A DNA stretch of 64,000 nt from Massalongia carnosa (Eukaryota). Positions 4,701-38,195 of this stretch are shown one piece after another. The notes below the pieces were generated by a model, which searched no databases, was not told where the DNA came from, and was given only the letters and a program-made list of their open reading frames with translations. Each line of letters begins with the position of its first letter. Position 1 is the first letter of the stretch. The DNA is taken from the NCBI GenBank assembly GCA_965645245.1, contig OZ287085.1, forward strand, positions 1,674,001 through 1,738,000. Reading direction: 5' to 3'. Position numbers and translations under genes: made by a program.

Positions 4701-5024
4701 GGCTGCGGTACTGAAATATGATTGGTTCGGTCGGGTCTGGCCGATCTGGTGCGTCTGCACCGTTTGGTGGGGGTCGAAGCAAAAATTGACTGGCTGGTCG
4801 ACTATTTGCTTGTTTGGGGTCGCAGGAACGCTGACTGGTTGGTCAATTACCTGATTAGAATATATTCGTAGTGACTATGTAATTGTAATGCAGGTACGCA
4901 TCCGGGCTCATAACCTGTTGAAACTTGAGACGGTTGATTGTTCTATAGATGGAGAAGAGTGGCTAATATACATTCAGCTGACTAAGCATAGAAACTTCCA
5001 GAACTAGGGCAGTGCAATTCAACA

Positions 5025-16600: not shown

Positions 16601-17565
16601 TTCGGGGAAATGCCCTCAACCTTGGCGGTTAGAGGTCATTCTTCCATTCATAGTGGAACCATGGTAGTCTCCCCCTGAAACGCACTTTGCATCCAGTAAA
16701 GAGGAAGCAATCAAAGAGCATGACAAGATGACATCAGAGCCGAACCAAATAGTCATATACACGGATGGGAGTGATAACCCCTTCGGAGTTGGTGCGGCAG
16801 CGGTCATCCCCAGCGACAACACACGGGTAGGAACCCGCCTCGGAACGAACAAAGAAGCCACAGTTTACCTCGCGGAACAAGTGGGCATCGACCAGGGACT
16901 GGCGGCGGCTAATGCACGATGGCAAGGGGATATAATAACGGTTTTTGCAGATAATTAATCAGCCATTAAATCAGTAGCCGACCCCGGAACTCAATCAGGT
17001 CAGTTCATACTAGGCGAGATCATTGGAAAACTCCACCTATGTCGGGAGATGTAGGCCAGAGTCAGACTCTGCTGGATACCTGGGCACATGGGAGTAGAAG
17101 GCAATGAGATAGCAGACCAAGCAGCAAAAGAAGCATCAGGCTGGTTAGAACCTGGCCATAGTCCCTCCTTCACCCACTTCGACTTCCTCGGACACACAGT
17201 GAAGTGGGCGATTAAACTCAACATGAGGACAATGACCAGCAAAGAACGGGCTGGGGATTGGGAGGCAGAAAAACGCGGACAGATGACGAAAAAGCTCCTC
17301 CCCCAGCCCACTAACAAGGTCTTGCAGCTCTACCAGGGGCTTCACAAGTCAATGAGTTCCACCCTGGTGTATATGAGAACAGGTAAGATTGGTCTCCGCA
17401 AGTATCTCTCAGGTATAGGCCGCACCGAAACGGGCGAATGTCCATGCGGCTTCGGTTATCAAACAGTTCACCATGTGCTTCTGGAGTGCGTCAGGCACCA
17501 TCGATTGCGCATGGAGACTATCTGGAAAGGCCGGAAGGTGTTCGATCTCCAAGAAATTTTTAATG
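13631..17565 (+). mobile_element. Tad1-like LINE, truncated at both ends, with RNase H
   Basis: ORF1 tail, then ORF2 from 13814: APE endonuclease (GDFNLHH, SDH), RT (YRPISLLN, YVDD), RNase H (YTDGS, WIPGH..GNE.AD) and CPCG..H..C knuckle. Stops and frameshifts present; ends approximate. Confidence 0.93.
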
Positions 17566-18892
17566 GTAGTTGTTCAATCGAACATGGAATCATGAGGAGG
17601 TGAAACGACGACTCGTTCAGCCCAAAGCCGAAATGCAATAGAATCGTAAGGGAATCGAGACGTACATGGCGCAGGTGATGGAATTTCGCGAGAAATTATT
17701 GGTGTTAATGCACATGGGCGGCGGACAGCCCGGACGAGGCCCCGAAATATTGAGTTGTCGACACAGCAACACGGCGCGAGGAGAGCAGCGCAGCATATTC
17801 GTGGAGCAGGGATTGATGGTGTACGTGACCCGATATCATATAGGATACGTGAGAAAAGGAGATGTCAAGGTGATTCATCGATATTTGCCCCGCGAGATCA
17901 GGGAGTTGTTGATGTATTACATATGGTTGGTATTGCCGTTTCAGCAAAATTGGAAGTCACGATTTGGGAGAAAGATCAGATGTCAGCGTTCATGTGGCCG
18001 TCCGACCCGGATGGCAAACGGTGGACGTCGCAGCGACTGCGGACGGTGTTGCAGCGCGAGAGTCGAATCGGCATGGTAGTGTCATTGGGAATTCAGTCAT
18101 ATCGGGAGATTGCCATGGGCATCAGTCGAAAGTACATGCGAGAGGCTTTGTCATTTCATGCCGACACGGAAAACGAGGAGACGGCAGACGATGGGTTCAA
18201 CGATATTGTGGACGTGCAGGCGGGGCATGGATCGCACGTGGCGGGCATGATATATGCACGATGTGGCCAGCAAGCGTCAGCGGTTTCGTCAAAGCAGTCA
18301 GGAATGGCATCGGTTTTAAGGATTTGCATCAGTCATGACAACGCACGAGTTGTCCAAACAGGAAACCAAACGCCGGTCGATATGGTGAAGAAGGGTAGTC
18401 GTGCGTGCTAATGGAAGGTAGTAGGACGTGATGATAGATGGCGAACTGAGCAGTGAACACAAAAACACAAACGTCTGAATGGACCTACGACTGCATAGAC
18501 ATGAAAAGATCTCGACGACTGAACGACTGAACGACTAATTGATACACGAAATGAACGTGTGTCGATGACTATGTGACACGACGATGATGATGACAGCGTA
18601 GGTGATAGAAGATGATGTCCGGAGATGATGAAGAAAACGCCAGCTAAAAACCCGTTTTATCCCCACACAGGCCTGCCATGTCACCTGACCATAGATGACA
18701 CATGTCGCCCCACCACAATGGGAAGGAGAGAATCAAGAGATTCGGATGCATCGATGGAAACGATTGCGTGGAGTGGACATTCAACAGCAGTTGGAGCGAT
18801 TGATTGGCGCCGGCAGTCAGTTCCGCGGGGTGCAACGGGTCACGATCGAGGCGATCATGGCCGGCGAAAGCCCGGTGATCACGGTGATGCCC
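17566..18892 (+). pseudogene. Tyrosine-recombinase-like domain and start of the helicase, copy 1
   Basis: GGGQPGRGPEIL..TRYH..LGIQSYREIA..QAGHGSHVAGMIYAR, then FRGVQ..GESPVITVMP. Split by solo LTR 18386-18717 and cut at 18892. Confidence 0.7.
18386..18717. mobile_element. Solo LTR-like insert with 4-bp TSD
   Basis: TGAAG..CCACA with TSD ATGG. Absent at the matching site of gene copy 2 (~39295). A second copy lies inverted at 36085-36419. Confidence 0.85.
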
Positions 18893-20305
18893 CATCGGGA
18901 AATCGGGAGGACCCGCGAATTGGTCAAATGGTCGACTAATAGGCTAGATTAGTCAATTAGCCGAAATGTTCTCGGTACTGCCGATTGCGCCCACGTTTGA
19001 CATGGGCGATCGACGAATAGTCGAACATTTGAAATATGTTAGGATTTTGGTGTAGGGAATATCTAGGAAAATTAAGATTTTGGAGTTTGAATGGTGGGGT
19101 CATGTTGGTGGCATGTGTTTTCATAAGCGAAATTGCAAATCATTTTGCATACGCTAATAGCAAGCATGTTTTGCTAATGCAGGGGATCTGTTTACGTTTT
19201 ATCTGATTTCTGACGGTCGCGGAAAGTGAAAACTCCTCAAGCTTTCAATATGGATCGAGATTGCGGCTATTGCGGCAAAAGGACAAAATCTTCCAGAGGA
19301 CTCGAGCAGCATATCAAACATTGTTCTGTGCGTTTCGGTACTAAATTACGGATCAGGCTACGCGAGGAAAATAGAGTTATCAAGGAGGATTTACCCCTAA
19401 GTCTCCCATTTTCTTCTATCGTTTGCGAGGGCGAGCATGTCCTTGCCGAGTCAAGAAGTATGCATGATAAAAATGTTGGGAGTAGTGCTGACGCTGGCGA
19501 ACATGAGTTTCAGGATACGTCCCTAATCGTTGGATTCAATGATAATTTCGTTAAGTCTTTCCCGTATGGCTTCGGTATACTTTCCACGTCTTCGTCGATA
19601 CGAATAGAAACTCCATCGGGAAATCGGGATGACTAATAGATCATGATGATTAAATATTCGACTTTTTGGTTTCTTTAGTCTTTATTCGTCAACCTTTAGT
19701 CAGTTGCCTTTATCTATTGTACGTCTTGTCGTCATATTAGTCAGTGCAACCTGCGACTCAACAAATAATCGTCGCTCTGTCTTTACTTCCTGTCTCGATA
19801 AGCTTTATTATTCTCTGTACCTTGACCTTTTATAATATTATCCACTCTATCCTATCTTTACGTCCTCTTTATCGTCGCAGAGTAATTTTGGTTGTTTAGC
19901 TGCGCTCTTTACATGTCGCATCGTCATACATTGACTTCGTTGCAGCTTTGGTATCTTGCGTATAACATATCTTTATAATACGCAACCCACCTTGCATGTC
20001 TTATCGAAGATAATTTTACGCACATCCAGTTCTCGAAGATCAACAGTATTCTACATCATTACGTGGTTGTGATTCTCATTATTCTTTGAATTGATAATTA
20101 TCTGTTACTTGATGACGAGAAAGCCTGCTTAATGCCTACAGAGCCCAAATCTTAGAAGACCAACTACTACCGCGACGACATATTAAGCTCAACTGTTCTG
20201 GAACAACAGTCCCTCTTAGACGGAAGCCCTTCCTTATCCTACCAAAAAGCGCATGCGTTTAGGAAACCAATTCTCTTTAATCCTAACATAACACAACAGG
20301 TTACG

Positions 20306-20475
20306 TGTGACGAAGCGAGATAGTGAATATATTTCTACCATTGCGCCACCTGTCCTCCCGACCAAAAGGCAAAACGCTTAGTCCACAGACCAAGCTCTAT
20401 TCTACTATAACTAGGACTCCTGCCATGTTCGCTTTAGGTCCTGCTGTCGAGACCACGCATTGTCGAACCGTTACA
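20306..20475 (-). mobile_element. Solo LTR (same family as the LTRs at 51902 and 57999)
   Basis: TG..CA with TSD TTACG. The same insertion is present in X1 at 35331-35500. Confidence 0.9.
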
Positions 20476-20899
20476 TTACGTTATAATCCCAAACATAAAC
20501 TAAACACCCAATCTATCAAGTCTAAAGTATTCAAGAGCACATGAAGGTCTAGATATATGGGACGTGCGATGGGGGGGCGCTCTGGGTCGTAATACAAATT
20601 CTCGGTCGCAATACGAATAGACTCGGTTGGTTATATTAACCTGAAAAATAGAGTGAGAGGTGGTCGTTATTTGAGGTTTTCATGTTTTGATGTTCCCGAA
20701 AACCGCGCTAAATCCGTCCGTCTAACAAACTTGCAAAAAACCTCGATTCGGTTTAACGTTGACTCGATGAGGTTTAGTGTCGATTATGTCAACATTATAA
20801 TTTTTTTGTTAACGCGATGCTACTTCATCATTTACTTAATCATCTGCTTCATCTATTTCATAATTTATTTCAATCATTATTAATTACTGGCTATTCAAT

Positions 20900-22280
20900 G
20901 ATGTTAGTGGTAGATACAAGGTGGTCTGGCAGGTAGACAAAAGGTGGTCTGGGTGAGGGACAAAAGGAGGTCTGGGTAATAGACAAAAGACAGTCTGGCA
21001 GGTAGACAAAAGGTAGTCTGGGTGATAGATAAAAGGTGGTCTGGGTGGCTGAGTGATGGACAAAAGTTGGTCGGGCAGGTGGTCTGGCAGGTGGTCTGGA
21101 GGATGATCAAAAGGTGATGTAAGTGATAGACAAAAGTTGGTCTGGCTGGTGGACAAAAGGTGATATTAGCGGTAGATAAAAGGTGATCTGGCAGGTAGGA
21201 AAAAGGTGGTCTGGGTGATAGACAAAAGGTGGTCTGGCAGGTGATCTGGATTATAATCAAAAGTTGATATGAGGCATGGACAAAAGGTGGTCTGGCAGGT
21301 GGACAAAAGGTAGTCTGGCAGGTGGTCTGGCAGGTGGTCTGGCAGGTGATCTGGCAGGTGGTCTGGATTATGATCAAAAGTTGATATGAGAGATGGATAA
21401 AAGGTGGTCTGACAGGTGGACAAAAGATGGTCTGGCAGGTGGACAAAAGGTGGTCTGGCAGGTGGACAAAAGGTAGCCTGGCAGGTGGTCTGGTAGGTGG
21501 TCTGGACGATGATCAAAAGGTGATATGAGGGGTAGACAAAAGGTGCTCTGGCAGGTGGACAAAATGTGGCCTGACAGGTGGACAAAAGGTGGTTTAGATG
21601 ATGGACAGAAGGTTGTCAAAAGGTGGTCAAAAGGTGGTCAAAAGGTGGTCTAGACGATGGACAAAAGGTGATCTAGGTGATGAACAAAAGTTGGCCTGAC
21701 AGGTGAAAAAAAGGTTATTAGTGGTGGACCAAAGATGGTCTGGGTTATGATTAGAAGTTGGTCAAGACGATGAACAAAAGATGATATGGACGATGGACAA
21801 AGGATGATATAGACGATGGACAAAAGATAATCTGACAGGTGGGCAAAAGATGATCTGACAGGTGGACAAAAGATGATATGGGAGGTGGAAAAAAGGGGAT
21901 CGGAATAGTGATCAAAAGGTAGTCTGAGTGAAGGTAAAAAGGTGGTCTTGCAGGTGGACAAAATTAGATATGAACGTTGGTCAATAGATGATATGAGTGA
22001 TGGACAAAAGATGATATGAATAGTGGTCAAAGAGGGTCTGAATGATGGACAAAAGGTGATCTTGGTGATGATTAAAAGGTGGTCTGGATGATGATCTGTC
22101 AGTTGATCTGGACGATGGACAGAAGATAGTTTGGAGGGTAGACAAAAAGTAATACGGGTGACAATCAAAGTGTGATCAGGGTAGTGGTCAAAAGGTGGTC
22201 AGGACGGTAATCAAGAGATGGTTTGGATGATTGACAAAAGGTGGTCTAGATGGTAGATAAACGGTGTTCTGGGTAGCAGA
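20900..22280. repeat. Degenerate minisatellite (GGACAAAAGGTGGTCTGGCAGGT and GGTGGTCTGGCA units)
   Basis: Directly visible. A shorter inverted counterpart lies at ~34910-35100. Confidence 0.9.
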
Positions 22281-22676
22281 CAAAAAAAATGTCGAGGTGG
22301 AATTTTCAGGGAAAAAAGGGAGGTTATTTGAAAAGTGGCAGAGACTATTTGAAGGCTATTTAGGAGCTAGATGTGGGGCCTTATTACAATCAGCGGAGGC
22401 TATCTGGGAGACTATTTGAAAGATGCTTTGACAGATACTTTGGCGGGTGTCAAGGAGGAGATGGCGCAGGGCCGTTGCGGAGTGAAGCGGAGCAGGTCCG
22501 GAGCAGAAATCCGAGATATTTTGAGATTCGCATGAAAAATTAGCAAGCCAAATAGCAAGCCAAATAGCAAGCCAAATAGTAAGAAAATGAAAAGTAGTAG
22601 CAAATTAATCTCAGGTCTGAGATGGCACAGTCTCGTACCTGGTAACTATTGTTACAGGTGAACGGATATCATTGTA

Positions 22677-22973
22677 CTATCCCCCCCCCTGAACAATCTT
22701 GAAAACATGGGATTTTGCAAGGGCGGTACGGGAGTATGTGCTAGGGTGAAAACGGGCGTGGATACAGGCTTGTCGCCAATCAGACAGTCGAATCTTCTGG
22801 ATATTTGGGGACGGAGGTAAAATCACTAAGGGATTCGCTGTAGGGCTGTACAGTAAAAAATATTTACATGTCCTGATTGGCTCGAAGCCCTGGTTTTCTA
22901 CCCATGTGCTGTCAAGTCATTACTCCCGTCCTCCCTTGCAAAAAACCCATAAGATTGTTCAGGGGGGGGATAG
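22677..22973. mobile_element. MITE, Tc1/mariner-like
   Basis: TIR CTATCCCCCCCC(C)TGAACAATCTT extending imperfectly to ~60 bp, TA on both sides, non-coding. Confidence 0.85.
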
Positions 22974-23295
22974 TAAGTATGAGGGGTTTTGAAATACTGA
23001 ACCTTTTACAGAGATGATCTACGGTAAGCTAACATTAACTAACCCTAATCTAACAGCTAACAAGATTTGCTTGATCTAACAGGGTTTTCTTGATCTAACA
23101 GGGGCTGTTTTAATCTAACAGGAACCGTTAGTATATCATAACAAGCTAAATTTGGGATCATTTTACTTTTCGCGTCGATCTCTTCTACTTTGCTCGTGTC
23201 CCAAATCCATAGGTATTGCATATTCCTTGTTGCTTCTTTTATTTCACTATGTCAACATCAAAGCAACCACTATCAAAAACCCACAAAGAATCACA

Positions 23296-25913
23296 ATGGT
23301 ACTAACCTCCCAGGATGTATAGAAACCAACACTTATCGGCTGACTTTGCTTTTCCTTCGAGAATTCTCAGGATTTTGATGATTCGCCTCCCGAAGAAGAC
23401 TTGCATACATTGACACAACTAAAACGCTCTAGTACACAATTTGATGGAAATAACACTTACGGAGACAACAAACGCTCACATCGCCTGTCTTCTGTGGACG
23501 AGTTGGCTGAATCTAGTACTGGCAACGACTCAAGCAATGCGAGTTTCCAGCCAAGTGTAAATAGTACAGTCATGAATGCATGTATCGGGTTCTGACTTAG
23601 AACAGAAAACGCCGATAACTAAGCATATGGCGAGGAAATTACGGGCCGGCGCAGGCCGCGGTATTCAATACAGATCAAGTTCTCCATGTCGATGGAGCTC
23701 CTTACGAAGGGAAACGTTCCCCTCGTCTCCACCTAGAAACCCTTCCCGCGCGCTGGATAATATCTTGTCGCCTTCACAAATACGCACTCGTCGGGGTTTG
23801 CCTGCGACACTCTCTTCGCAAACTCTCGAGATCTCAAAGGTCCTCCCGATCAAGTCTACTTCCGGCGCAAGGGCTGGCATAACGGAGGACGAGACAGTCT
23901 CCGAAATCCAAAAAAAAAGATGCTTATCGTTTACTCTAGGGTGACATATTAAGGCGAACCAAGTTCAACTCTAGCCCTGCTCATCACTAATACTAAGTGC
24001 CATGATTCCTTTTTTCAACACTCTGATAACGTCCGGACATGCGGTTGAATTATGTTCGCCTTGGGCGAACACACAGAAGCCTCGATTGAGCAAATTAATG
24101 AGTCGTAATTGGCAGGACCTTGTGAAGCGTCTCGGTAACCTTACTGGCAACCGGAACGTCGACGTAGCAGAGCTTCCCACCGCCAAAGAGGCTCTCAGGG
24201 TAGGTGAGGTCTTGCTTACAACGGATTTTTACATATAAAAACTAATCTGAGATAAGATTTATGATTCGACAACGGATTTTCGCTCTCAAATGTTGAGCAA
24301 AGTGAGATTGCTTGTGGCTAACGAATACCCGTTCTCAGTTCTGTCACGATTCTACACGGCACGACCTCGGCACTCGGCACCGCCTAGGGCAATCGTAGAT
24401 GGAACACGCAGGCGCTTTCGATTTCGTTCCCGCAGCTGCTAGAAGGTTCCATGACGACTATACCACATGGGTACTAGCGCAGTAGAGGATATATAGGGCA
24501 GGTTCTGGTTGTCGATTGTCTTTTTCCTTCTTCATCTTTATTGTATTCGTTTCTAGCATCCCTATGACTTGTCTCTATGTAGATCATAACAAGTTCAGAG
24601 CGACTGTCGAATATTCGCGTCCACTTTACTAGACGATCTTCATTTTCTGTACGAAGATTTATCAAAGGTTAATATTTCCTAGTTATCTTGATATAAAGTT
24701 TAACTAACTCGCGAGTAGGCTCCGAAAAAGCAGTTACTCGCGCCTATCTCGATAAAGGCAGTTACTCTGATATTCTTCAATAACGACAATGACTACAGTT
24801 ATGGACGCAATACCGATACTGCGCATTTGTTCAATCAACTTCGAGGAGAAGTGATCATATTGATAGCAACTCTGATTCAATATGCTATTGGAGAGTACGA
24901 ATACGGGCAATAAAAGGTACAGGCTTTTGATGGGTCACAGCGAGAGAGTAAGTTTGTATCAATATAATCTTTGCTGAGTTGAGGCATTAATACTGAAAAG
25001 CAATCCATACTCGAACGACGAACACCAGGAATCAACAGTCCTCGGAGAGAAAGATGTTGGTACAAAGAATCATTCATCGGCGGGTTTTGCGTCAGACTGG
25101 AGAAAGAGATGGGGACTTTTCGGCGGTCACAAAAGCTGTCCACAATCCATTTGCCACTTCTATTGACGATCTTGTAGATCTTGATGCGGGAGATGAAATG
25201 ACAAAGTCGGTCAGGTCGACAGCGCGGCTTTCTTCCTTGAAATCTTCGTGTAGAACTTCGATCGTTCGTTACAAGGAGGTGCATTCGGGTTTTTCGGTAT
25301 GTCTTGATTGGTATTATGCTTTGGAATTATCAGTAACAACAATAGAAGGAAACCTCTTCACCTAGACCGCCGCAGTTGACGAGCCACGAGGTATGCAATC
25401 TTATTAACCGCGTTCTAACGTGGTATTAACATCTCTCCTAGAGTTCTTCGCAACGTGGACCCTCACAATTAAAGCACAGCGCATCAAGTTTATCCTTCGT
25501 AAGTATTCGCTTTGTTTGTAGAATATCTGTTAGTCTAACAATTGCGTTGGAAACAGATTAACGATAAGATATTGTCAACTCCAACTCCACTCGCGCAAGA
25601 CGCAATCGTGACGACAGATTCGGGTCAGAAAGCTGCGGTAGATTACGATTTACGCATGGGGAAAGACTGGCGGATTCGGATAAGGTATAATGCAACGTGG
25701 TAGGACTAGCAGACTGCTGTGGGAATGAAAGATGGAGAGTCGTTCTGGTATAATCTACCAACAATTCCCGAGGCCGTATTGAACTTTGAGGAGGAATATA
25801 GTTCGTTTGTGGAACAGGTGCATAGAGTAATGATACGAAGAGGAAACTGGGCGCAATCTCAAGCAGATGAAGACTATGCGAGGGAGGAAGACAATATGGG
25901 AGAACTTACATAA
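23296..25913 (+). pseudogene. Decayed multi-exon gene of unknown function inside X2
   Basis: Successive + strand ORF fragments separated by short fungal introns (25297-25345, 25391-25441, 25499-25556, probably 24200-24256). Confidence 0.6.
24342..24797. mobile_element. Probable old solo LTR
   Basis: TGTCACG..CTACA with an internal TATATA. Flanks GTTC/GTTA match imperfectly. Confidence 0.5.
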
Positions 25914-28900
25914 TATTATTTAAACCAAATCTTGATAATATACTCGACTGGTGTGTCTTTATCGTCGAATCTTGCAGCATCAAGCGCTCGAAAAGGAAAC
26001 AATAGCAGTGCATTTTCACATACGCAAGATTTGTTACAATGTTACTAAAACAACAAGTTAATTAATGAAATTATTGCATTTAAATGCTTAAAATGACTCA
26101 AAAGAGTCATTAAAGCAATTATCATTATTGGACAAAGAAAGGTAAAGGTAATCAATAGTCAAAGAGCAGCTGTTTACAGGTCAAATATTCGATTATTCGT
26201 CAAGTGCCCATGTCAAACGTGGGCGCAATCGGCAGTACCTAGAACATATCTGCTAATTGACTAATGTAGCCTATTAGTCGACTATTTGACAAATTCGCGG
26301 GTCCTCCCGATTTCCCGATATTATCAAGATTAAACAAGAGGACTGCAGGTGAACCAGTAGAGACAACTGCTTATAAGACAACTGAAAATTATAATGACAT
26401 TTCACATGTACTCCATCAACCCTTTGCAAACGAGACGGACTATGCTCTGGCTATGTGGTTTCTGGAGGCCGAAAACACCAAAGGGGAGATAGATAAGTAC
26501 TTCTAGGATCATCGTCTAAGGCCATTGCATGCCCACTCAAGTTTTAAGAATGCTGACGAGTGGATTACTCTACTACATAAAATAACTCATGGTATATTGA
26601 ACGATGAATGGAGAACCGATGTTTTTCAGGTGAACCCGATATATGTTGATCAGAAACCTGTCCAGTATTCTATTAAATACAGAAATGCTATCGGTGCTCT
26701 ACAGTTCTTGATAGGTCATCCCCCATTAAGGTGACAGCTGGTGGTCAATTCAAGAACAGCTTCCTGAAAATGCAACAGTTGTGCCACTTCTCTTAGCTAC
26801 AGACAAAACAAGACTCACCAAGCATCATGGAGATCAGTCGACGTGGCCTGTTTATCTTAAGATTGGAAACTTAGATCGAAAGACTCGACGCCAGCCCAAT
26901 AGACCAGGTATCGTTTTGTTAGGTTTTATCCCTATCGTCAAGGAGAAGGAGAAGGGAGACGAACTGAAAGCTCAGGTCTATCATCATGCAATGAAAATGA
27001 TGCTCAGACGTGAGTTTCACTCACTGCTTATTATAAACGATAACTAACCATGACTTGAATGCCGTGCTAGCTATCAAACAACATTCAAAAAACGGTATCC
27101 TTTTGACTTGTGCCGATGGACATGTGCGACGATGTTATCTTATTATCGCCGGCTTCACTGTGGACTACGAAGAGCAGGTTTTGATTACGGGGATAAAATC
27201 TCAGCGTCATTGTAGCATTTGCCAGGTTCCCTCAAACGAACGAGAAATTTACTAAGAATATGGGATCCACGCACACATGAAACAACTCGAGCTCAAATCG
27301 CCAAAAAAGAGGGACAAGTAATTCCAAAGGCAAATGAAGCCTGGGTATATCCAGTGATCAATTTTGCCTGGAAACATCAATTGGTCAACATACACGGTGT
27401 AATGATAGTTGATATACTTCATTAACTGCTAAAGGGCATCTTAATGAATATGATAGAATGGACTCAGTTTCCTTATTGATGATATAACGCCAATCAAAAG
27501 AAAACGAAAATTGCACGAGGCTTTGATTGAGGAAGCGCCCATTGCTGCACAGCTTGACCATCGATTTGACGCTGTGCCTTCGATTTCTGATCTTCAACAT
27601 TTCTCGAAGTTTAGTAAGATAACATAATGGTCGGGGAACGAACAAAAGGATATACTAAGAATATTCGTTCCTGTTATTGCTCCATTTCTTACTGGCAAAT
27701 GTCCTGCTACTATGCTTTGCGTTCGAGCCATCTGCGATTTCGCCACAATGGCACAGTATCGTTCGAATGACGAAGAAACCCTCCGTTATCTAGAACATGC
27801 GTTGTATCGTATCGACAAGCTCAAAAGGGTGTTTGGAAAAAGTCGACCCAAAGGCGACGAAACCGGTCAACCCACCTTTAATTTTCCTAAGTGGCATGTC
27901 ATGACACATTATGTGGAGCATATCAAATAATTCGGCAGCGCAGATTGGATAGATACTTCTCACAGCGAAGCTGCTTATCGATATCTAGTTAAAACTTTTT
28001 TCGATAGGACCAACAAGAGAGACGGTTATTTAGATCAAATCGCACAACACAACACGCGACGTCTCAACTCCCTGGCAATGAAAGACATTGAGCTTTACAG
28101 GCAGAGCAGAAAGGGAAATCAAGTAGATAAAGAGATGACAGTGCAAGTGTCCTCGCTTACTCGAGCCCTCGATCTTTCGTCACTAGACTGGTCGTGGGAT
28201 GAGGAAGAAATGGATCAACTGCAAGCGGTCGGACGAAGTTAGAAAACATGCGAGAAGCTTTTCGTGTTGCGGACGTGCTTCATCTTCACGATTTCCTCGA
28301 CGCCTTGGCAGTATTCATCAGAGAAAGCCGATACAAGTTGGATGGTATCAGAACTAGCAATGCTAATTTATATTGACGAGAGACGGATTCTTCTTGGGCG
28401 GGCTCACATTTGATTTCGATACATAAAGGTATCAAATGCTGGATACGGGATGGCAAGGATTCATCGGACCTGGAGGCGCTCAAGTCCGAAATCATACGTT
28501 GCGCACCAAGCTGGATAAGGAGTAGAAACTGGAGACGAGATTACGTATGGGTTCAGGAAAATTCTGCAGGAGAGTGCCACGGAACTAGCAATTCTCGAGC
28601 TCTAGAGGGAAGATTGATAGGACATGTTCAATTGATTGTTACCATTATTGATCATGCCAGAAGAGACTCTCGAGGCAAACACCCGATGTATTCTGGTGTG
28701 TTTCGTGATCTTTTACGACCTCGGAACAATAGTCAACCGAACGAAATACATGGAATGTGTTGAATGGCGGTTGCGATTATGGTTATAATGGCTTGTTGGG
28801 CTCACTGCGTGGATAGCGGGTAGTCTAATCTTCTCTAGGAAGGTTTTAGGTTTAGCGTGCTTTGCCCTTTGGTGAAAAGTCTGCTCTTTTCCTTTCAGAT

Positions 28901-29014
28901 AGCTATATAGTCAATGCGATTACCTGCAACCAGAGTCTCCTTTTAACTGGTTATGAGCACGGTCAGCAACAAGCTTCCGAACATCAGAAAAGGATATAGC
29001 TCTTCGCAAATCGC

Positions 29015-29210
29015 TATCTCGGCAGCTCGACTACGATTCCTTTAGGTAGGAAGAATCAGCACCTCGGCAGCTCCTTACGATTCCTATGGTAGGATAAACC
29101 AGCACCTCGGCAGCTCCTTACGATTCCTATGGTAGGATAAACTAGCACCTCGGCAGCTCCTTACGATTCCTGTGGCAGGATAAACCAGCACTCCCGGCAG
29201 CTTGATACGA
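29015..29210 (+). repeat. ~43-bp tandem repeats in the Copia leader
   Basis: CGGCAGCTCCTTACGATTCCTATGGTAGGATAAACCAGCACCT, about 4.5 copies. Confidence 0.9.
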
Positions 29211-29241
29211 CGGATCCAACAAGCACAATCAAATATCAAAA

Positions 29242-31512
29242 ATGACAACAATCGCAGACGATCTAGCGAAAAGAAGACCCTTGCCCGTTCTGACAAGGGA
29301 GAACTATCAAAGATGGTTCGAGCTGGCCGAAATGCATTTCGAAGCGGAAGGCATCTTTCATACAATAAGCGAGCCACAGCCCAATTCCTCGTACCTTCAG
29401 CAGCGAATGGACAAATTAAGCCTTGATGGAAAAGGAATAGATAAATCAGACACACCCCTCACCCGGGAAACCCCAATTATCGATTCGGAAAGATGGAGAA
29501 AGGACAACGCTAAAGCATGCTATCTTATAACCATCTGCTTAAGCCAATTCGATCAAGAACGCGTAAGAGTGATGAAGACAGCGGCGGAAAAGTGGACCTC
29601 GCTGTTAAGCAAGTACAACAGCATCCTTCCCACTTCAGGAAGACATTACCTTCAAGAGCTGGTGTCATATAAAATGAAAGAGAACACCACCGTTCAGGAA
29701 GCATGGGGGGAACTTTTGTTGTTGAGAGACAAGGTCGTCATGGCCACACCCACACTTCGAGACGCATTTCCCACTCGGCAACTATTCCAATTACTCTTAC
29801 AATCTCTCCCAGCCGAGTACGCGGTCATTAGGGACGGAATTGATGCAATTGGGGGAGTAGATGCCAAAATTGGCATAACAAGGTTGGAAGACAAAGAAAT
29901 TCAGCTAACACAGGCGAAAGCAGATTTAGCCTTGCTCGCAAAGCAGAAAGAACAGCGAAGAGAGCAGCGACGGCCTCTCAACCCATCCAGAAGTCAAAGC
30001 ACATTCAACAACTCCAGGCAGGAGCGATCCAGACGGCACGAAAGGTCCTCAAGTGCAAAGAGAAAAACGAAAATCAAGGACAACTCGCAAAAGGGATGCT
30101 TAATCTGTGGAGAAGTCGGCCACTGGACCAAAGAGTGCGAATTCTTGGAAAGCACTCGCAGCCACGTCAGGAGCCTCGCGAAGAAGAAGAAAGAGGTCAA
30201 TAAAGACAAATCATCCGTCAAGCGCCATCGGAGCTATCTCGCTGGCGAGTCAGAAGAAGAGGACGAGAACGATAGCTTCTCATCAGGCGACAATGACGAT
30301 GATCTAGATGATCTCGAGGAAACTGCGGCCCTCTCCAGAGAAGCAGTCTGTAAGATTCCCAGATCAAAATGGGTAGCTGACTCTGGCGCATCATCCCACA
30401 TGACTGACAAGCTTCAGCTCTTTAGCGGACCTCTGACAAAGATTAGAGAAAGAAGAATAAAGGTCGGCGGGGGAGAATTGAGAGCATGTCATCGCGGTAC
30501 GTGCGTGATCAAGGATGGGCACGGAAATCAGGGATTTCTTTCTTCTGTCCTTTATGTCCCCAAGCTAGGGGTTAATCTCTTGTCTGGAAGGCGGATGTGC
30601 GAGAAGGGCCTCATCGGAAGTTTCGATCAGCACGGGCTGAAGATGCATGACAAACAAGGCAAGGAGATCATGGAGGCACAGCAGCGAGGGGGAGTATATA
30701 TCGTCGAGAAAATAGCAAAGGATCTCGATGAATTCGCATTTACCGCGTCCATGCATCATGACATTGCCTTTCCAAGCAAAGTTGATATTGCATCACTCTC
30801 GTCTTCATCAGAGGCGTTAAAGCCGCGCGGCGCGGGTTTAACATGTCCAACAACACATAACAATATGGAAATCGAGATTGAGTCAACACCCGCACTTAAC
30901 CCAACCAAGACGGACAAACACTCTGAAACGTACAGGCTATGGCATCGAAGATTCGCTCACCTAGGCCGAGAAAAGCTTCGTAACCTGCATAAGGTCACCA
31001 CCCTAGAAAAGCCTATTCCGGTCAGCAAAGAAGAGGATCACATTTGCGAGGTATGCGCGCTCACTAAGCTCACCAATAAAAGAGGCAAAGCGACCGAGCG
31101 AAAAACCTCACTTCTGGCTCTGGTCTCCATCGATATTTGCGGTCCTTTGCCTGCCTCTCGAGAAGGATACACATACTTTTTGGAAATTGTGGACAACTAT
31201 TCTAGAAAGATATGGTCCATTCCACTCAAAAAGCGAGACGAAGCACCAGGTGAATTGCGAAAATGGAGAATAAAAGTCGAATTACAAAGTGCACAAAGAC
31301 TATTGGCTGTACGGAGTGACAATGCCACCGAGCTGAAGGCTACTCTTGATGAATGGTGCTCCTCAATCGGTATTATTCCGCAATACACCGTTCCTCATAT
31401 GTCTATTCAGAACGGAGTCGCCGAGCGAGCAATTCGTACCACCGAGAACTCGGTGCGAGCCATGATAAAGGATGCAGAACTCCCAATTCTGGAAGGAAGC
31501 CATGGAAACTGA
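29242..31512 (+). CDS. Copia gag-protease-integrase (N-terminal part)
   Basis: CLICGEVGHWTKEC knuckle, WVADSGAS, WHRRFAH, SIDICGP. Frameshift near 31485. Confidence 0.92.
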   Translation: MTTIADDLAKRRPLPVLTRENYQRWFELAEMHFEAEGIFHTISEPQPNSSYLQQRMDKLSLDGKGIDKSDTPLTRETPIIDSERWRKDNAKACYLITICLSQFDQERVRVMKTAAEKWTSLLSKYNSILPTSGRHYLQELVSYKMKENTTVQEAWGELLLLRDKVVMATPTLRDAFPTRQLFQLLLQSLPAEYAVIRDGIDAIGGVDAKIGITRLEDKEIQLTQAKADLALLAKQKEQRREQRRPLNPSRSQSTFNNSRQERSRRHERSSSAKRKTKIKDNSQKGCLICGEVGHWTKECEFLESTRSHVRSLAKKKKEVNKDKSSVKRHRSYLAGESEEEDENDSFSSGDNDDDLDDLEETAALSREAVCKIPRSKWVADSGASSHMTDKLQLFSGPLTKIRERRIKVGGGELRACHRGTCVIKDGHGNQGFLSSVLYVPKLGVNLLSGRRMCEKGLIGSFDQHGLKMHDKQGKEIMEAQQRGGVYIVEKIAKDLDEFAFTASMHHDIAFPSKVDIASLSSSSEALKPRGAGLTCPTTHNNMEIEIESTPALNPTKTDKHSETYRLWHRRFAHLGREKLRNLHKVTTLEKPIPVSKEEDHICEVCALTKLTNKRGKATERKTSLLALVSIDICGPLPASREGYTYFLEIVDNYSRKIWSIPLKKRDEAPGELRKWRIKVELQSAQRLLAVRSDNATELKATLDEWCSSIGIIPQYTVPHMSIQNGVAERAIRTTENSVRAMIKDAELPILEGSHGN

Positions 31513-33910
31513 TGCATATCTTCGGAATCGCACGGGATGCGGACCGATCATCGACGGCTATGCTAGCACACCGGAAGAAGCCTTCACGGGCGTCAAGCCA
31601 TCCATTGATCACATTAGGGTATGGGGATGCAAATGCTATTCGTACGTCGATCCCAAATCGCTACCCGCGGAGGATAGAAGGGATAAGTTCATGGATAGAG
31701 GCAGAATCGGAGTCTTTATGGGATATGTAGAAGAGACCACTAAACAGTATCGTCTCTGGGCACCCGACATGGGAAAAATCATCAGAAGCCATGTCGTAAA
31801 ATTTGATGAAAATTTAAAAGGTGGCAGCGTTGATTTAAACTTGCGGAAGCAGACACCCAACGTGCTACCAGAAAGACGGCCAGTAGGAAGACCACAAAAG
31901 ACAAAAGAAACGAAAATCAGCGAACCCGCCAAATTAGTAGAAAGATTTTCGCATGTGGAGGTTTCTAGTCAACAGAATCAAACTCATGACCAACCAAACC
32001 CGAAAGATGATGTCACTCAAAACGTACCACCAATCCCAACTTCCGAAGAGTCGCCCATAGCGAATGATTCAATCCCAGCCGCAGCTGTGCCTAAGGCTAG
32101 CACTAGCATATTCTCTCATGTTTCAATCCCGAAGCGAAAGCGATCTGATGAAGACTCAGTTCCCGAAGAACCGGCTTTCAAAATACCGCGCGCTTTTCTA
32201 GCGCTGTTCGCCGACGATAATAACGAGGATGAAGATGGCTATCTCAAATTCGAATCTGCCCTATCGGCTGATGCTTCTTCATTTGAAAGAAACATACCCG
32301 AGCCTAAGTCTTACAAGGAAGCAGTAAATGATCCGGTGTGGGGGGAACTATGGAAAGAAGCAGTGAACACCGAGATCAAGGCGCTCATCGGTAATAAGAC
32401 TTGGAAAGAAGTTGTTCCACCTCCCAAAACGAACATCGTCACCTGCAAATGGGTGTTTAAAGTAAAAACCAACCTCGATGGCTCATTGGAGAAGTTTAAA
32501 GCAAGATTAGTCGCCCGTGGGTTTACTCAAAAATACGGCATCGACTATGAGGACACTTTCGCCCCCACGGTAAGATCAGATACCCTACGTGCAGTGCTTG
32601 CCATAGTAGCGATGGAAAACCTGGAATGTCATCAAGTGGACGTGAATAACGCATTTACCCAATCAACCTTGAAAGATGTCATTTACATGACCGCACCGGA
32701 AGGAGTAAACGTTGCCGCTGGTAGAGTTCTTCAGATTCTGCAAAGTCTATACGGTTTAAAGCAGTCCGCCAGAGAATGGAATAGCCGCTGTACAAATGAG
32801 CTGACCAAACTAGGCTTCATTCAATGCTCATCTGACCCATGCCTATTCACTCATCCTAAAAAGGGAATCATCATATTCATGCACGTAGATGACCTGGTGA
32901 TCGCCTCCAAAATGATGAAAGAGATCGATTGGTTCAAGAAAGAGTTCAATGCTGCCGTTAGCATCAAGGACCTAGGAGATGTGTCGAAGGTTCTGGGCAT
33001 ACGAGTAACCAGAGATCGGAAAAATCGAACTCTTCGAATGGACCAGACGCATTATCTCAAAGATGTGATGGAGAGAACACATATGAGCGCTGACAAACAT
33101 AGGCCTACCGAAATTCCAATGAACGGCTATGATTCATTGCGACCGGCTGGAAAAGATGATAAGCGCATAGATCAAAGAGAATATCAGCAAATTGTTGGAA
33201 GCCTGATGTACGCGGCAATTCATACGCGGCCAGATATAGCTTTTGCTCTTGGAAGGCTAAGCCAATATCTCAGTGATCCAGCTGCTCAACACGGTCATGC
33301 ACTAAAGACGCTGCTTAGATACGTTCGGTCTACCATTGACATCGGTATACTGTATGGGGCTGGGGGGAATCATGGCCAAGGCCTCATTGGGTATTCCGAC
33401 TCAGACTACGCAGCTGATAGGCTCGAAAGAAAATCGATCTTGGGATACGTGTACATGCTAGGGGGAGGGCCTATATCGTGGATGAGCAGAAAGCAAAAGT
33501 CGGTTGCTACGTCTACAACGGAGGCAGAATACATGGCCTTATCAACTTGTGCTAAGGAGGGTTTATGGCTCGTTCAGCTGATGAAAGACATAGGCTTCGA
33601 GAAATATTTCAGTCATAACGTCAATATTCGTGAGAACTTGACGCATCGAGCTGACTCCCCGATGCGGTTAAAAGGAGATAATCAAGCCGCTATACAACTG
33701 GCAAAAGATGCTCACATTCATGATAGATCTAAGCATATCGACGTTGCCTATCATCACATTCGGAACCTGCACAAGCGAAATCGAATTCAGGTCGAGTACA
33801 TACCCAGCGGAGAGATGATTGCCGACGGCCTAACCAAGCCTCTAAATAAGCCCATCTTCAATCGGTTCATTAGTCAATTGGGACTGCAAAAAATGGAAAG
33901 AGTAAGGTAG
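31472..33910 (+). CDS. Copia integrase C-terminus, RT and RNase H
   Basis: KARLVARGF, LYGLKQSAREW, HVDD, YSDSDYA, KHIDV. Confidence 0.93.
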   Translation: MQNSQFWKEAMETDAYLRNRTGCGPIIDGYASTPEEAFTGVKPSIDHIRVWGCKCYSYVDPKSLPAEDRRDKFMDRGRIGVFMGYVEETTKQYRLWAPDMGKIIRSHVVKFDENLKGGSVDLNLRKQTPNVLPERRPVGRPQKTKETKISEPAKLVERFSHVEVSSQQNQTHDQPNPKDDVTQNVPPIPTSEESPIANDSIPAAAVPKASTSIFSHVSIPKRKRSDEDSVPEEPAFKIPRAFLALFADDNNEDEDGYLKFESALSADASSFERNIPEPKSYKEAVNDPVWGELWKEAVNTEIKALIGNKTWKEVVPPPKTNIVTCKWVFKVKTNLDGSLEKFKARLVARGFTQKYGIDYEDTFAPTVRSDTLRAVLAIVAMENLECHQVDVNNAFTQSTLKDVIYMTAPEGVNVAAGRVLQILQSLYGLKQSAREWNSRCTNELTKLGFIQCSSDPCLFTHPKKGIIIFMHVDDLVIASKMMKEIDWFKKEFNAAVSIKDLGDVSKVLGIRVTRDRKNRTLRMDQTHYLKDVMERTHMSADKHRPTEIPMNGYDSLRPAGKDDKRIDQREYQQIVGSLMYAAIHTRPDIAFALGRLSQYLSDPAAQHGHALKTLLRYVRSTIDIGILYGAGGNHGQGLIGYSDSDYAADRLERKSILGYVYMLGGGPISWMSRKQKSVATSTTEAEYMALSTCAKEGLWLVQLMKDIGFEKYFSHNVNIRENLTHRADSPMRLKGDNQAAIQLAKDAHIHDRSKHIDVAYHHIRNLHKRNRIQVEYIPSGEMIADGLTKPLNKPIFNRFISQLGLQKMERVR

Positions 33911-35330
33911 TATCGCACCGCAGGGGGACTGTTGAATGGCGGTTGCGATTATGGTTATAATGGCTTGTTGGGCTCACTGCGTGGATAGCGGGTAGTCTAA
34001 TCTTCTCTAGGAAGGTTTTAGGTTTAGCGTGCTTTGCCCTTTGGTGAAAAGTCTGCTCTTTTCCTTTCAGATAGCTATATAGTCAATGCGATTACCTGCA
34101 ACCAGAGTCTCCTTTTAACTGAATGATAGAAATGAAGACTTGGTCCAGAACACACGCAAAATCCCCCCGAAATCTGAATAGTAGACGATTCTACGATCTA
34201 TCTATGATAATGCGTAGCGCACATTTGATACCATCGGGAATCAACTCAGACGTGTTTTACGTCAACAATTACATAGATTGGGATCAATTCAACATGTTAT
34301 AAGACGAGGAATTTCTGGCCAAAGGGATCCGGGCAGCAGATACGGCGGAAAAGCAGATATTAAACTAATCAAATCGAAAATAAAACATCGATAAGGACAT
34401 GCTAATCTTGCAAAACTGCTGTCATTCATCTAATAAGGGAACCCAAGATCTAACAGCAAAACGTGTCATCTATCAAGAGTTAGAAACATCTTATAACAGC
34501 TGACAGCATCTAACAGCGAAGGGTGTCATCTAACTGAAGTCTCTATTATCTAATAGCAAAGCGCGTTATCTAACAAAAGCTGGAAGCATCTAACAGCAGT
34601 GGACAACATCTAACAGCAAAGTTGATGTCTAATCCTTGTTATTAGCAATCTTTAGCAACGGTTAACATATAATGATATCGGTTAACCTGTAACAATAGTT
34701 AGCAGTTATCATAGAAGCGGCAACGAGTTCGTGGCAATTCAGACCTGAAGCGTTGAAGACGGCGGACATAGCAGAGGACAACAGTGTTCTTTGCGGAGAC
34801 GATAATACTAAATATAGTAAGCACCCCCGAAAAGCCTTATTCCTGCACCAGACCTGCTCATCGACGCTCCGCAACGGCCCTTCGCCACATTGTTCGTGAA
34901 CTGAATGTTCACCTCTTATACCACCTTTTGAACATCATCTAGACCATCTTTCGTCAACCATTTATCTACCATCCAGATCACCACCCAGATTATCTTTTGA
35001 CCACAATCCAGACTACCGTCTATGCCACCTTTTGACTATCATCCAAAGCACCTTCTTATCCACTATCGATACGATTATCCAGATTATCTTTGAGAACCGT
35101 CCATACGAAGGATGTTGTGGCATATATCCCGATGAATAAATCAAGTAGTGGACTCTATTTGTCAGGTTAATATAACCAACCGAGTCTATTTGTATTGCGA
35201 CCCAGAGCGCACCCCCATCGCACATCCCATATATCTAGACCTTCATGTGCTCTTGAATCCTTTAGACTCGATGGATTGGGTTTTAACTTATGTTTGGGAT
35301 TATAACTTAACGTTAGGGATTATAATATAA

Positions 35331-35500
35331 TGTAACGGTTCGACCATGCGTGGTCTCGACGGCAGGACCTACAGCGAACATAGCAGGAGTCCCAGTTATA
35401 GTAGAATAGAGCTTGTTCTGCGGACTAAGTATTGTGCCTTTTGGGCGGGAGGATAGGTGGCGCAATGGTAGAAATATATTCACTATCTCGCTTCGTCACA
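35331..35500 (+). mobile_element. Solo LTR shared by X1 and X2
   Basis: TGTAACGG..GTCACA with flanks TATAA/CGTAA. Confidence 0.88.
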
Positions 35501-36084
35501 CGTAACCTGTTGTGTTACGTTAGGATCGAAGAGAATTGGTTTCCTAAACGCATGCGCTTTTTGATAGGATAAGGAAGAGCTTCCGTCTAAGAGGGACTGT
35601 TGTTCCAGAACAGATGAGCTTAATATGTCGTCGCGGTAGTAGTTGGTCTTCTAAGATCTGGGCTCTGTAGGCATTAAGCAGGCTTTCTCGTCATCAAGTA
35701 ACAGATAATCATCAATTCAAAAAATAATGAGAATCACAACCACGTAATGATGTAGAATACTGTTGATCTTCGAGAACTGAATTTGTGTAACATTATCTTC
35801 GATGAGAAATGCAGGGTAGGTTGCGCATTATAAAGACATGTTATACGCAAGATAGAAAAGCTGCAACGAAGCCAATGTTTGACGATTCGACATGTAAAGA
35901 GAGCAGCTGAACAACCAAAATTACTCTGCGACGGATAAAGAGGACATAAAGATAGGATAGAGTGGATAAGATACGACTGAATTATTAAAAGGTCAAAGTA
36001 CAGAGAATAATAAAGCTTATCGAGACGAGAAGTAGAAACAGAGCGACGATTATTTGTTGAGATGCAGGTTGCACTGACTAATAT

Positions 36085-36419
36085 TGTGGTGGGGCGAAAT
36101 GTGTCATCTATGGTCAGGTGACATGGCAATCCTGTGTGGGGATAAATCAGGTTTTTTGATGGCGTTTTATTCATCATCTCCGGACATCATATTATATCAC
36201 TTACGCTGTCATCATCATCGTCGTGTCACGTAGTCATCGACACACGTTAATTTCGTGCATCAACTAGTCGTTCAGTCGTTCAGTCGTCGAGTTCTTTTCA
36301 TGTCTATGCAGTCGTAGGTCCATTCAGCCGTTTGAGTGTGTGTGTATGTTCACTGCTCAGTTCGCCATCTATCATCACGACCACCACCTTCCATTAACAC
36401 GCACGACTACCCTTCTTCG
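36085..36419. mobile_element. Solo LTR-like insert with 4-bp TSD
   Basis: Inverted copy of 18386-18717 with TSD ATAT. The empty site is preserved in X2 at ~19735. Confidence 0.88.
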
Positions 36420-36545
36420 ATATGACGAAAACACGTACAATAGATAAAGGCAACTGACTAAAGGTTGACGAATAAAGGTTAAAGAAACCAAAAAGTCGAA
36501 TATTTAATCATCAAGATCTATTAGTCATCTCCCGATTTCCCGATG

Positions 36546-38195
36546 CCACCGGGGGTGGCAAAAGCATGATATTCATGTTGCCGGCGTCGTGCGGGCACGG
36601 AGGGGTAAGCGTGGTGGTGTTGCCGTTGATCGCAATGCGACAAGACATGCGGCGACGGTGTAAGAGCATGGGCATCACATGCGCGGAGTAGAGCAGTCGT
36701 CGACCACCCGAGGTGGCATCGTTGGTGTTGGTCACGCCGGAGTTGGCGGTGACGGTGGATTTTCAGACATTTATCAATCGATTACGAGCCATGCAGCAGT
36801 TGAAAAGCATAGTCATTGACGAATTTCATGTCAAATTGACCGAACGATGAGATTTCCGTTCGCAGTTGCAGCATTTAGGGCGGTTAATCGGGGCAGCAAC
36901 GCAGATGATATTGTTGACGGCGACGTTGCTGCCCGGCAGGAGATGGAATTGTGTCGTCAGATGGGATTCGTACGAGACAAGGTGCGAATGTTTCGCAGCG
37001 GTATCAGTCGCGCCAATATCCGTTACTGTATCGTGCGGGGGATGAATAGCGGCAGGCAACAAATCGAATTTTTGACGGGATGTTGCGGAGTCGGGCGAGC
37101 GGAAAGATAATTGTGTACGCCAAAACAGTGTCGAATGTGCAGCGGTTGGCGCAAGCATTGGATTGCGGCGGCGCATATCATCATCATGCGACGGACAAGG
37201 ACGAGATATTTCAGGGGTTGATGCAGGGGACCCGTCGGGTGGTGGTGGCCACCAGCACGTTTGGGTTGGGGATTGATTTATCGAATATTCGGGTATTGGT
37301 GCACAGGGATGTCCCGCGCAGTATGGAAGAATATGTGCAAGAAAGCGGACGGGCGGGAGGAGACGGCGACATCAGCGAAGTTATCATCATTATTCGATCG
37401 GAGGCGCAGCAATCGAGCGATATGTTTCCGGATAGCGAATCCAGGCAAAACATCAAACGGTTTATCATAGCGATGGAACAAAATGAAAAGTCAACGAGTC
37501 ATACTGGATAAATATATGGATGGATGTTAAGATCGCGAGAGATGTGAAGCTAATGAAGAGTCATGTCAACGATGTCATGACATGCAGAACCGAAGACGAA
37601 AAGAAGAAGCAGACGAAGGTCATTGAAATGGGACAGGCAGTTCCCCGAAGGATTTACAATCGTCGTTGGAATTCGAGAAGCAACAACGATTACGCCGAGG
37701 ATTACGAGAGCGTCAAACGATGCAGAACAGTAAAGAAAGCAAGGAAATCGAAAGATTCACGCGACATTTGCAATTTTGGCAGCATCGATGCCCGGCATGT
37801 GAGTCGATCGAGAGGACGGATGACATGCGTGTGACGAGTTATTCGTTAACATAATGCGTTTCGGGCGAGATTTTGACGATACAAGAATTAGCGAAGGAAA
37901 TTGCATTGAAGATTCGATATGAGCGATATTCGTGTTTTTATCATTGTGAATTGCCACAGGGAATATGTCGTCGATATCAGGCCAAGCCGGAGAAGGAGGC
38001 CGGATTTTGGGTAGGGATTCCCGGGGCGGAATGTCATATTCAGAGGTGATTATATAGACATAGGTGGGATTGATATCGAAGTATCCGAAGGCCTTTGGAG
38101 ATCCGGCGGGGTAGCGAGTGCGGGCGGATAGCATTTCCGTTGAGCAAAAAGAGGAAGTTATTCAATGGCTGGGACGGCAAGTAATATGAGGAGGA
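36546..38195 (+). pseudogene. RecQ-type SF2 helicase core and Cys-rich C-terminus, copy 1
   Basis: PTGGGKS, VVLPLIA, VIDEFH, LTATL, TSTFGLGID, YVQESGRAG, then CPAC. Confidence 0.9.

Follow-up and report, generated by a model that had tools for sequence, protein, structure and literature searches.

The nested elements and their insertion sites

We analysed a stretch of 64,000 nt of DNA from Massalongia carnosa (assembly GCA_965645245.1, contig OZ287085.1, positions 1,674,001-1,738,000 of the forward strand; from here: the window). Its positions 18893-36545 are occupied by what is, as judged from the sequence, very probably (probability about 0.93) a dead DNA transposon of the PlavakaB type (CMC/CMCT clade, with a DDE transposase), inserted into the Walker A motif of a helicase gene with duplication of the dinucleotide CC. 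This transposon, element 1, has a transposase as its sole gene, on the + strand, which starts with the ATG at 19250, ends with the TAA at 34366-34368 and comprises roughly 1,010 codons. A non-autonomous copy, element 2, lies within that gene. The features needed for the argument are given below, with TIR for terminal inverted repeat and TSD for target-site duplication. The protein P0001 (1032 aa), a full-length relative of the window transposase, matches positions 1-325 of the Pfam Plavaka family (PF18759) at 274.9 bits.

17562-18890 (+): left portion of the target, which is a pseudogene from a multi-copy family of RecQ-like (DEAD/Helicase_C) helicases, 78-82% identical to the paralog at 38451-39467
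18891-18892: left TSD copy of element 1, CC
18893-36545 (+): element 1, an autonomous-type but dead Plavaka transposon; span 17653 bp, 5237 bp minus three nested insertions
18893-18909 (+): left TIR of element 1 ('A' end), exact 17-mer CATCGGGAAATCGGGAG
19250-19611 (+): N-terminal part of the transposase, matched by tblastn to P0001 aa 7-129, P0005 and P0007, with a zinc-finger-like CxxC...HxxxxC motif
19612-19613: left TSD copy of element 2, now TC (the target was TT)
19614-26320 (-): element 2, a non-autonomous Plavaka copy of 6707 bp, reversed within the transposase gene of element 1
26321-26322: right TSD copy of element 2, TT
26323-28752 (+): middle part of the transposase, which holds the catalytic domain (Plavaka, PF18759) and has many stops and frameshifts
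34126-34368 (+): C-terminal part of the transposase, matched by tblastn to P0001 aa 935-1026, with the TAA at 34366-34368
36529-36545 (-): right TIR of element 1 ('B' end), exact 17-mer CATCGGGAAATCGGGAG
36546-36547: right TSD copy of element 1, CC
36548-37520 (+): right part of the helicase pseudogene (TGGGKS...)
38451-40467 (+): tandem helicase paralog, 76-82% identical and without interruption at the insertion site, hence the empty-site comparator

With up to 3 mismatches allowed, the 17-mer was sought along either strand of the whole window, with 100 shuffles as the null. Four matches were obtained against a shuffle mean of 0.16, and none of the 100 shuffles reached four. Two of the matches are exact and coincide with the ends at which the first-pass annotation had placed a 17-bp TIR and its inverse. 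As it had also pointed out, each TIR of element 1 contains ATCGGGA twice, 8 bp apart. The A and B ends are the same over positions 1-17 and diverge directly after them. The other two matches, at 19614-19630 (+) and 26304-26320 (-), have 1 mismatch each and bound element 2. Element 2 shares with element 1 the B subterminal sequence at its left end (~1040 bp, 90-94% identity) and the A subterminal sequence at its right end (139 bp, 92% identity). The two extra TIR copies and this self-comparison show that the 17.65-kb span is a nest of elements rather than a single one. The annotated ends thus were exact, but the TIR copies at 19614 and 26320 had been overlooked.

Element 1 has the left flank ...GTGATGCCC and the right flank CCACCGGGGGTGGCAAAAGC, and the frame of the left helicase part reads ...EAIMAGESPVITVMP. 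When the flanks were joined after removal of 0, 1, 2 or 3 bp and aligned with the paralog at 39370-39560, the scores were 179, 181, 186 and 179, respectively, and only the 2-bp version was gapless. This join translates to ...VITVMPTGGGKSMIF... (also given as ...EAIMAGESPVITVMPTGGGKSMIFMLPASCGHGG), in which MPTGGGKS is restored. P0011, a helicase relative from the database (323 aa) with DEAD and Helicase_C Pfam matches, is uninterrupted and reads MAGESPVIAVMPTGGGKSITFMLPASCGHGGVSVVV, which is exactly MPTGGGKS at the same site. Contigs from four public runs were compared with the window and each joint was scored per run; in 4/4 runs contigs join 18890 to 36546, skipping 17655 letters (17653 + 2) with 2 letters fitting both sides. 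The runs X2-X7 (small word shares), X11 (a share of 0.26) and X12-X13 (shares near zero) contribute nothing to these counts. The earlier proposal of a CC duplication that restores MPTGGGKS is therefore backed by the paralog alignment, by P0011 and by the contigs.

Element 2 has its own insertion site. Contigs without it read ...GAAAC TT ATCAAGA... in 4/4 runs, and contigs join 19612 to 26329 with TATCAAGA in between, again in 4/4 runs. Against the uninterrupted form GAAAC-TT-ATCAAGAATT, the junction in the window is longer by two letters, which gives a 2-bp TSD of TT for element 2 with the left copy now TC. The window is also one A short, seven bases downstream of the junction. The uninterrupted reading, GAA ACT TAT CAA GAA..., translates to ETYQELNKRTAGEP and is in frame with ETYVESTGRPAGLP of P0001. 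A single window thus holds two base-exact Plavaka insertion sites, one of which splits a protein motif while the other lies inside a sister copy.

Two other accounts of these ends have to be weighed. In one, the duplication would not be 2 bp long: a 3-bp TSD (CCC/CCA) would have one mutated copy, or there would be no TSD and the CC would be a matter of chance. A 2-bp match alone has a chance of 1 in 16, and PlavakaB families are described as making TSDs of 2 or 3 bp (PMC12730594). Nevertheless, removal of 3, 1 or 0 bp breaks the frame and lowers the score from 186 to 179, 181 and 179, P0011 has exactly MPTGGGKS, the bridging contigs leave exactly 2 shared letters, and the independent junction of element 2 likewise has 2 extra letters. 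We regard a duplication of other length as very unlikely. In the second account the four TIR copies would bound a pair of overlapping or rearranged units, one with an A end on either side (18893-26320) and one with a B end on either side (19614-36545), or would stem from a mis-assembly. Like ends do face each other: positions 18893 and 26320 carry A-type, positions 19614 and 36545 B-type subterminal sequence. However, the transposase reading that breaks off at 19612 is taken up again at 26323, with order and frame as in P0001, in 4/4 runs there are contigs of this region that lack the 6.7-kb block, and simple insertion cannot yield overlapping elements, whereas a reversed A..B unit inside an A..B unit explains all four ends. 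We accordingly regard overlapping units or a mis-assembly as very unlikely, and retain one insertion nested in another.

The transposase gene, its termini and known Plavaka families

Within the TIRs, two fragments of open reading frames (ORFs) match the Pfam Plavaka hidden Markov model at 94.3 bits (26730-27044) and 54.7 bits (27037-27252), well above the cut-off of 26.3 bits, in agreement with the first-pass assignment. The Pfam scan of 116 ORFs in 17000-41000 reported no transposase family other than Plavaka, and Pfam scans of ORFs gave no sign of a TET/JBP or other second gene in element 1. The transposase is collinear with aa 7-1026 of P0001 through both insertions nested in the gene. At its N-terminus the CxxC...HxxxxC pattern is common to P0001, and the match to zf-C2H2 is weak (E 0.005, below the Pfam cut-off). 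Along the central part, frames 2, 3, 1 and 3 are needed in tblastn to follow P0001 aa 136-951, with stops inside the high-scoring segment pairs (HSPs). For the gene as a whole an uninterrupted frame is absent: the HSP frames are 2, 2, 3, 1, 3 and 1, with 1-13 stops per HSP. Since the aligned pieces shift frame repeatedly and hold in-frame stops, this copy of element 1 is dead. The alignment with P0001 nonetheless shows the motifs LLLATDKT, CADGH, C(2)C with CSIC (RHCSICQ), H(3)H with HVMTH (WHVMTHY) and SHSE (SHSEAA) kept in the window copy. Which D and E are the catalytic residues we infer from the description in PMC12730594, and the assignment is putative to that extent.

After removal of the three nested insertions together with their TSDs the element measures 5237 bp, close to the reconstructable element of ~5 kb foreseen in the first pass; removal of an older solo long terminal repeat (LTR) of 170 bp, shared with element 2, would leave ~5.06 kb.

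Element 2 contains no Plavaka coding sequence that tblastn with Plavaka proteins could match. Its ORFs of at least 65 aa gave no Pfam match at E <= 0.01, and among its 87 ORFs of 33-64 aa the sole Pfam matches were DUF6532 at 24719-24910 (+), with a sub-threshold 22.4 bits (cut-off 24), and GerE (E 0.02). The DUF6532 match may be a decayed passenger gene or noise. Pfam, Atlas and homolog searches found no convincing gene, no homologs of its ORFs and no TET/JBP in element 2. Of the two TIR pairs in the window, one hence encloses the transposase and the other bounds a non-autonomous derivative.

Whether the termini and the transposase belong together was assessed on a metagenome sample of 80 loci coding for Plavaka relatives, 631,134 bases in total. 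The terminal motif CATC[AG]GGAA[AT] has 32 matches there against ~4.8 expected, and the reversed motif, used as a control, has 6. All but one of the 32 lie outside the transposase match and face outward; they are spread over 27/80 loci. The PlavakaA-type terminal motif was in the expected configuration in 2/7 matches. Both CATCAGGAA and CATCGGGAA termini are found among the Plavaka-encoding loci. No DNA-level relative of element 1 was detected among the 80 loci (blastn, E 1e-5), so a recent common origin of the entire sequence does not account for the conservation of the terminal motif.

One family of 14 copies (L002-L007, L009, L011-L014, L016, L017 and L023) has transposases 35-41% identical to P0001. 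Its right ends, 504 to 739 bp past the transposase match, read ...TTTTC[C/T]C[G/A]AT[G/A] in 14/14 copies, that is ...GCGAATATTTTCCCGATG or a variant differing in 1-2 bases, and are of the CATCGGGAAA type; the flanks diverge directly past the right end in the 8 copies aligned. These elements are longer than 13.6 kb; the transposase takes up the 3' end, and 10 kb or more of common sequence lies upstream of it. They share with element 1 a Plavaka transposase and the CATCGGGAAA end, but element 1 is compact and has a single gene. In L047 and L056 a terminus CATCGGGAAATCGGGG agrees with the window TIR in 15/16 bases. At these two loci (L047 5190-12707, L056 1952-9468) it stands 328 bp from a 7.19-kb element with ends CACATACTG..CAATATGTG (16/17 bases), GC/GC flanks and a Plavaka-like transposase 29% identical to P0001, and the arrangement may be another nest of Plavaka in Plavaka.

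These results bear on a further alternative, in which the transposase gene would be a separate element nested in an unrelated, TIR-bounded one. Element 2, with the same TIRs and no transposase, speaks for it. The gene, however, occupies 19250-34368 of an element of 5.2 kb net and has no second set of ends around it, the terminal 10-mer flanks Plavaka-like genes outward in 27/80 loci (32 matches for ~4.8 expected), and the published PlavakaB termini are, in the available text of PMC12730594, of the same type. We therefore hold a separate origin of the gene to be highly improbable. Because the gene fills most of the space between the ends and the motif flanks Plavaka genes at so many loci, the transposase gene belongs with the TIRs. 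The first-pass annotation had named other TIR pairs that lack a 2-bp TSD, or never enclose the transposase, as the sign of a separately nested gene. Instead, the second pair in the window also has a 2-bp TSD, and the motif accompanies Plavaka genes at many loci.

According to the text available from Kojima (2025, Biology 14:1741, PMC12730594), Plavaka transposases resemble those of EnSpm and fall in the CMCT clade, whose members mostly have CA..TG termini and TSDs of 2-5 bp. PlavakaA is described there with TGT..ACA ends and 2-bp TSDs, PlavakaB of the Agaricomycotina with CATCA..TGATG ends and 2- or 3-bp TSDs, and strict EnSpm with CACTA or CAC..GTG ends and a 3-bp TSD. For PlavakaB-1_SLL of Serpula lacrymans the Fig. 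S2 text gives the terminus CATCAGGAAATTGGTGAAAAT. The retrieved text of a red-alga preprint likewise assigns elements to Plavaka by terminal motifs and TSD length, while that of PMC9674265, PMC5751038 and PMC8955403 contains nothing further on Plavaka ends. The first-pass view of Plavaka as chiefly a protein family is thus out of date, since the termini and TSDs of both PlavakaA and PlavakaB are described in PMC12730594 (December 2025).

With PlavakaB, as far as it is described in that text, element 1 shares a PF18759 transposase with C(2)C and H(3)H, CATC...GATG termini, a 2-bp TSD and a size of 5-9 kb. The TSD length holds for element 1 (CC) and for element 2 (TT, one copy now TC). The PlavakaB-1_SLL terminus CATCAGGAAATTGGTGA, as far as it is given, has few differences from the window CATCGGGAAATCGGGAG in the first 17 positions, two of them at CpG sites of the window TIR. 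The window TIR differs in its clean tandem ATCGGGA repeat, and element 1 in that no TET/JBP or other second gene was seen in it. PlavakaA resembles element 1 in the Pfam family and the 2-bp TSD, but its TGT..ACA ends are not seen here. The CATCG ends and the 2-bp TSD do not agree with the strict EnSpm/CACTA definition, although the CATCG..CGATG ends bear out the earlier statement that the termini are CA..TG ends of the CMC type. Element 1 fits the features of PlavakaB save for the fifth terminal base, a provisional assignment made by sequence features.

Several observations weigh against the interpretation of the locus given here. One is the fifth terminal base: the window termini are CATCG..CGATG, with G in place of the A of PlavakaB, so that 4/5 bases agree. 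The contigs that provide the empty site of element 1 are only ~92% identical to its flanks (X1 record 1: 22 differences in 275 letters), and at helicase flank positions several distinct contigs per run lie over a single position. It follows that these contigs represent paralogs or relatives of the helicase and not an allele of the locus; neither an excision footprint nor an allelic empty site was seen in the contigs of the four runs. For element 2 the TSD copies are no longer alike (TC and TT), and the 2-bp reading rests on uninterrupted copies in other contigs. Among the metagenome loci with both candidate ends (L046, L055, L060 and L068), 1/4 has a matching dinucleotide (L060, CT/CT); the ends in the other three may be mispaired or decayed. 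The first-pass suggestion of cut-and-paste behaviour accordingly draws on TIR, TSD and DDE motifs; excision was not observed, and it is helicase paralogs or relatives that supply the empty sites.

The helicase target and other insertions in the window

The helicase is present as two tandem decayed copies, one formed by 17562-18890 together with 36548-37520 and the other at 38451-40467. In the right part of the target copy a TAG at 36689-36691 replaces a Trp of P0011. With this stop and a solo-LTR-like insert, the target copy is itself a pseudogene. Its close relatives P0009-P0011 (81-83% identity) are fragmentary gene models. The helicase is a multi-copy family in its own right. We considered it as cargo of a larger Plavaka element and rejected this, since the helicase proteins have no tblastn match in the 80 Plavaka loci and the window holds no further full TIR; outside the two elements there are only short CATC[AG]G[GT]AA matches at chance level.

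Further insertions in the helicase and in the two Plavaka elements, together with a minisatellite, are as follows.

18386-18717 (+): solo-LTR-like insert in the helicase, TG..CA, 332 bp, with a 4-bp TSD ATGG at 18382-18385 and 18718-18721
20306-20475 (+): solo LTR of 170 bp, TG..CA, TSD TTACG, in the B-end region of element 2, matching the LTRs of the Copia element at 51902-58169
20908-22272: minisatellite of ~23-bp units inside element 2
24342-24591 (+): solo-LTR-like insert of 250 bp, TG..CA, 5-bp TSD AGTTC, inside element 2
28758-34120 (+): Copia-type LTR retrotransposon in the transposase gene, TSD GAATG at 28753-28757 and 34121-34125
36085-36419 (-): another copy of the insert at 18386-18717, 335 bp long with TSD ATAT, within the B-end region of element 1

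The nested Copia element has LTRs that form a 192-bp direct repeat with 100% identity, two long open frames (29206-31509 and 31469-33907) and Pfam matches to gag, integrase, RVT_2 and others. In 4/4 runs contigs lead from 28752 directly to 34121, a gap of 5368 letters, with 5 letters that fit both sides. The Copia element is probably the youngest insertion of the nest and possibly still active. The inserts at 18386-18717 (+) and 36085-36419 (-) are 92% identical and have in common TG..CA ends, a length of 332-335 bp, 4-bp TSDs and the lack of a TIR; most simply, they are solo LTRs of a retrotransposon. For the former the helicase paralog is empty, with a single ATGG, and for the latter element 2 shows the empty site near 19737. 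The 170-bp solo LTR is shared by both Plavaka copies at the same position (20306-20475 in element 2, 35331-35500 in element 1), and its insertion is therefore older than the divergence of the copies. A full Copia element of the same family as the 170-bp solo LTRs lies at 51902-58169 (-), with 171-bp LTRs 97.7% identical and the 5-bp TSD ATTCC. The 250-bp insert is absent from contigs that join 24336 to 24592, with 255 letters skipped and 5 fitting both sides in 4/4 runs. The minisatellite at 20908-22272 extends over 1.35 kb in units of TGGACAAAAGGTGGTCTGGCAGG and has length variants in public contigs.

The remaining window consists almost wholly of retroelements (1423-4874, 10806-12858, 13748-17600, 41587-48267, 48502-49626 and 60575-63557). 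They comprise fragments of Copia and Gypsy elements, one full Gypsy element whose 488-bp LTRs are 99.8% identical, and two elements resembling long interspersed nuclear elements, with endonuclease and reverse transcriptase. Among the window ORFs of at least 85 aa no ordinary housekeeping gene was seen.

Proposed history and significance

The original element would have been ~5.2 kb long. A 357-bp leader would have separated one 17-bp TIR from the gene of ~1,010 codons, and a 3' region of ~1.7-1.8 kb the gene from the other TIR. In the gene product, the Plavaka DDE domain would have come after a zinc-finger-like motif at the N-terminus. Such a transposase may have bound CATCGGGAAA-type termini, possibly via the two ATCGGGA repeats and the N-terminal zinc-finger-like module, excised the element and reinserted it with a 2-bp staggered cut; non-autonomous copies like element 2 may have been moved in trans. 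At this locus element 1 would have entered codons 2-3 of the MPTGGGKS Walker A motif in a copy of the RecQ-like helicase, with duplication of the target CC. Later insertions would have been the 6.7-kb non-autonomous family member, reversed, after transposase codon 121 with the 2-bp TSD TT, and the solo-LTR-like element in the 3' region, and the most recent one the Copia element with identical LTRs. Direct observation covers the ends and TSDs of both elements, the empty-site forms, the gene content, the motifs kept and the link of the terminal motif with Plavaka genes elsewhere.

A wider proposal has four parts: that CATC[A/G]GGAA[A/T] might be the recognition site across Plavaka lineages whose transposases are 26-41% identical, that the ATCGGGA heptamers might be zinc-finger half-sites, that the published CATCA might partly reflect CpG decay of an ancestral CATCG, and that element 2, sitting in the transposase of its own family, might be a parasite that inactivated its helper rather than a chance hit in a repeat-rich region. 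Taken jointly, we consider these four unlikely to hold together and offer them as a tentative idea.

Judged against the available text of PMC12730594, the novelty of the locus is low, as the end structure and TSD length of PlavakaB were already published in December 2025. With these in print, the locus leaves the state of knowledge unchanged. It does bring together, in one place, an autonomous and a non-autonomous form that have only their ends in common, and it provides a reference for annotating Plavaka ends in fungal genomes and for choosing pairs of TIR and transposase for binding or transposition assays.

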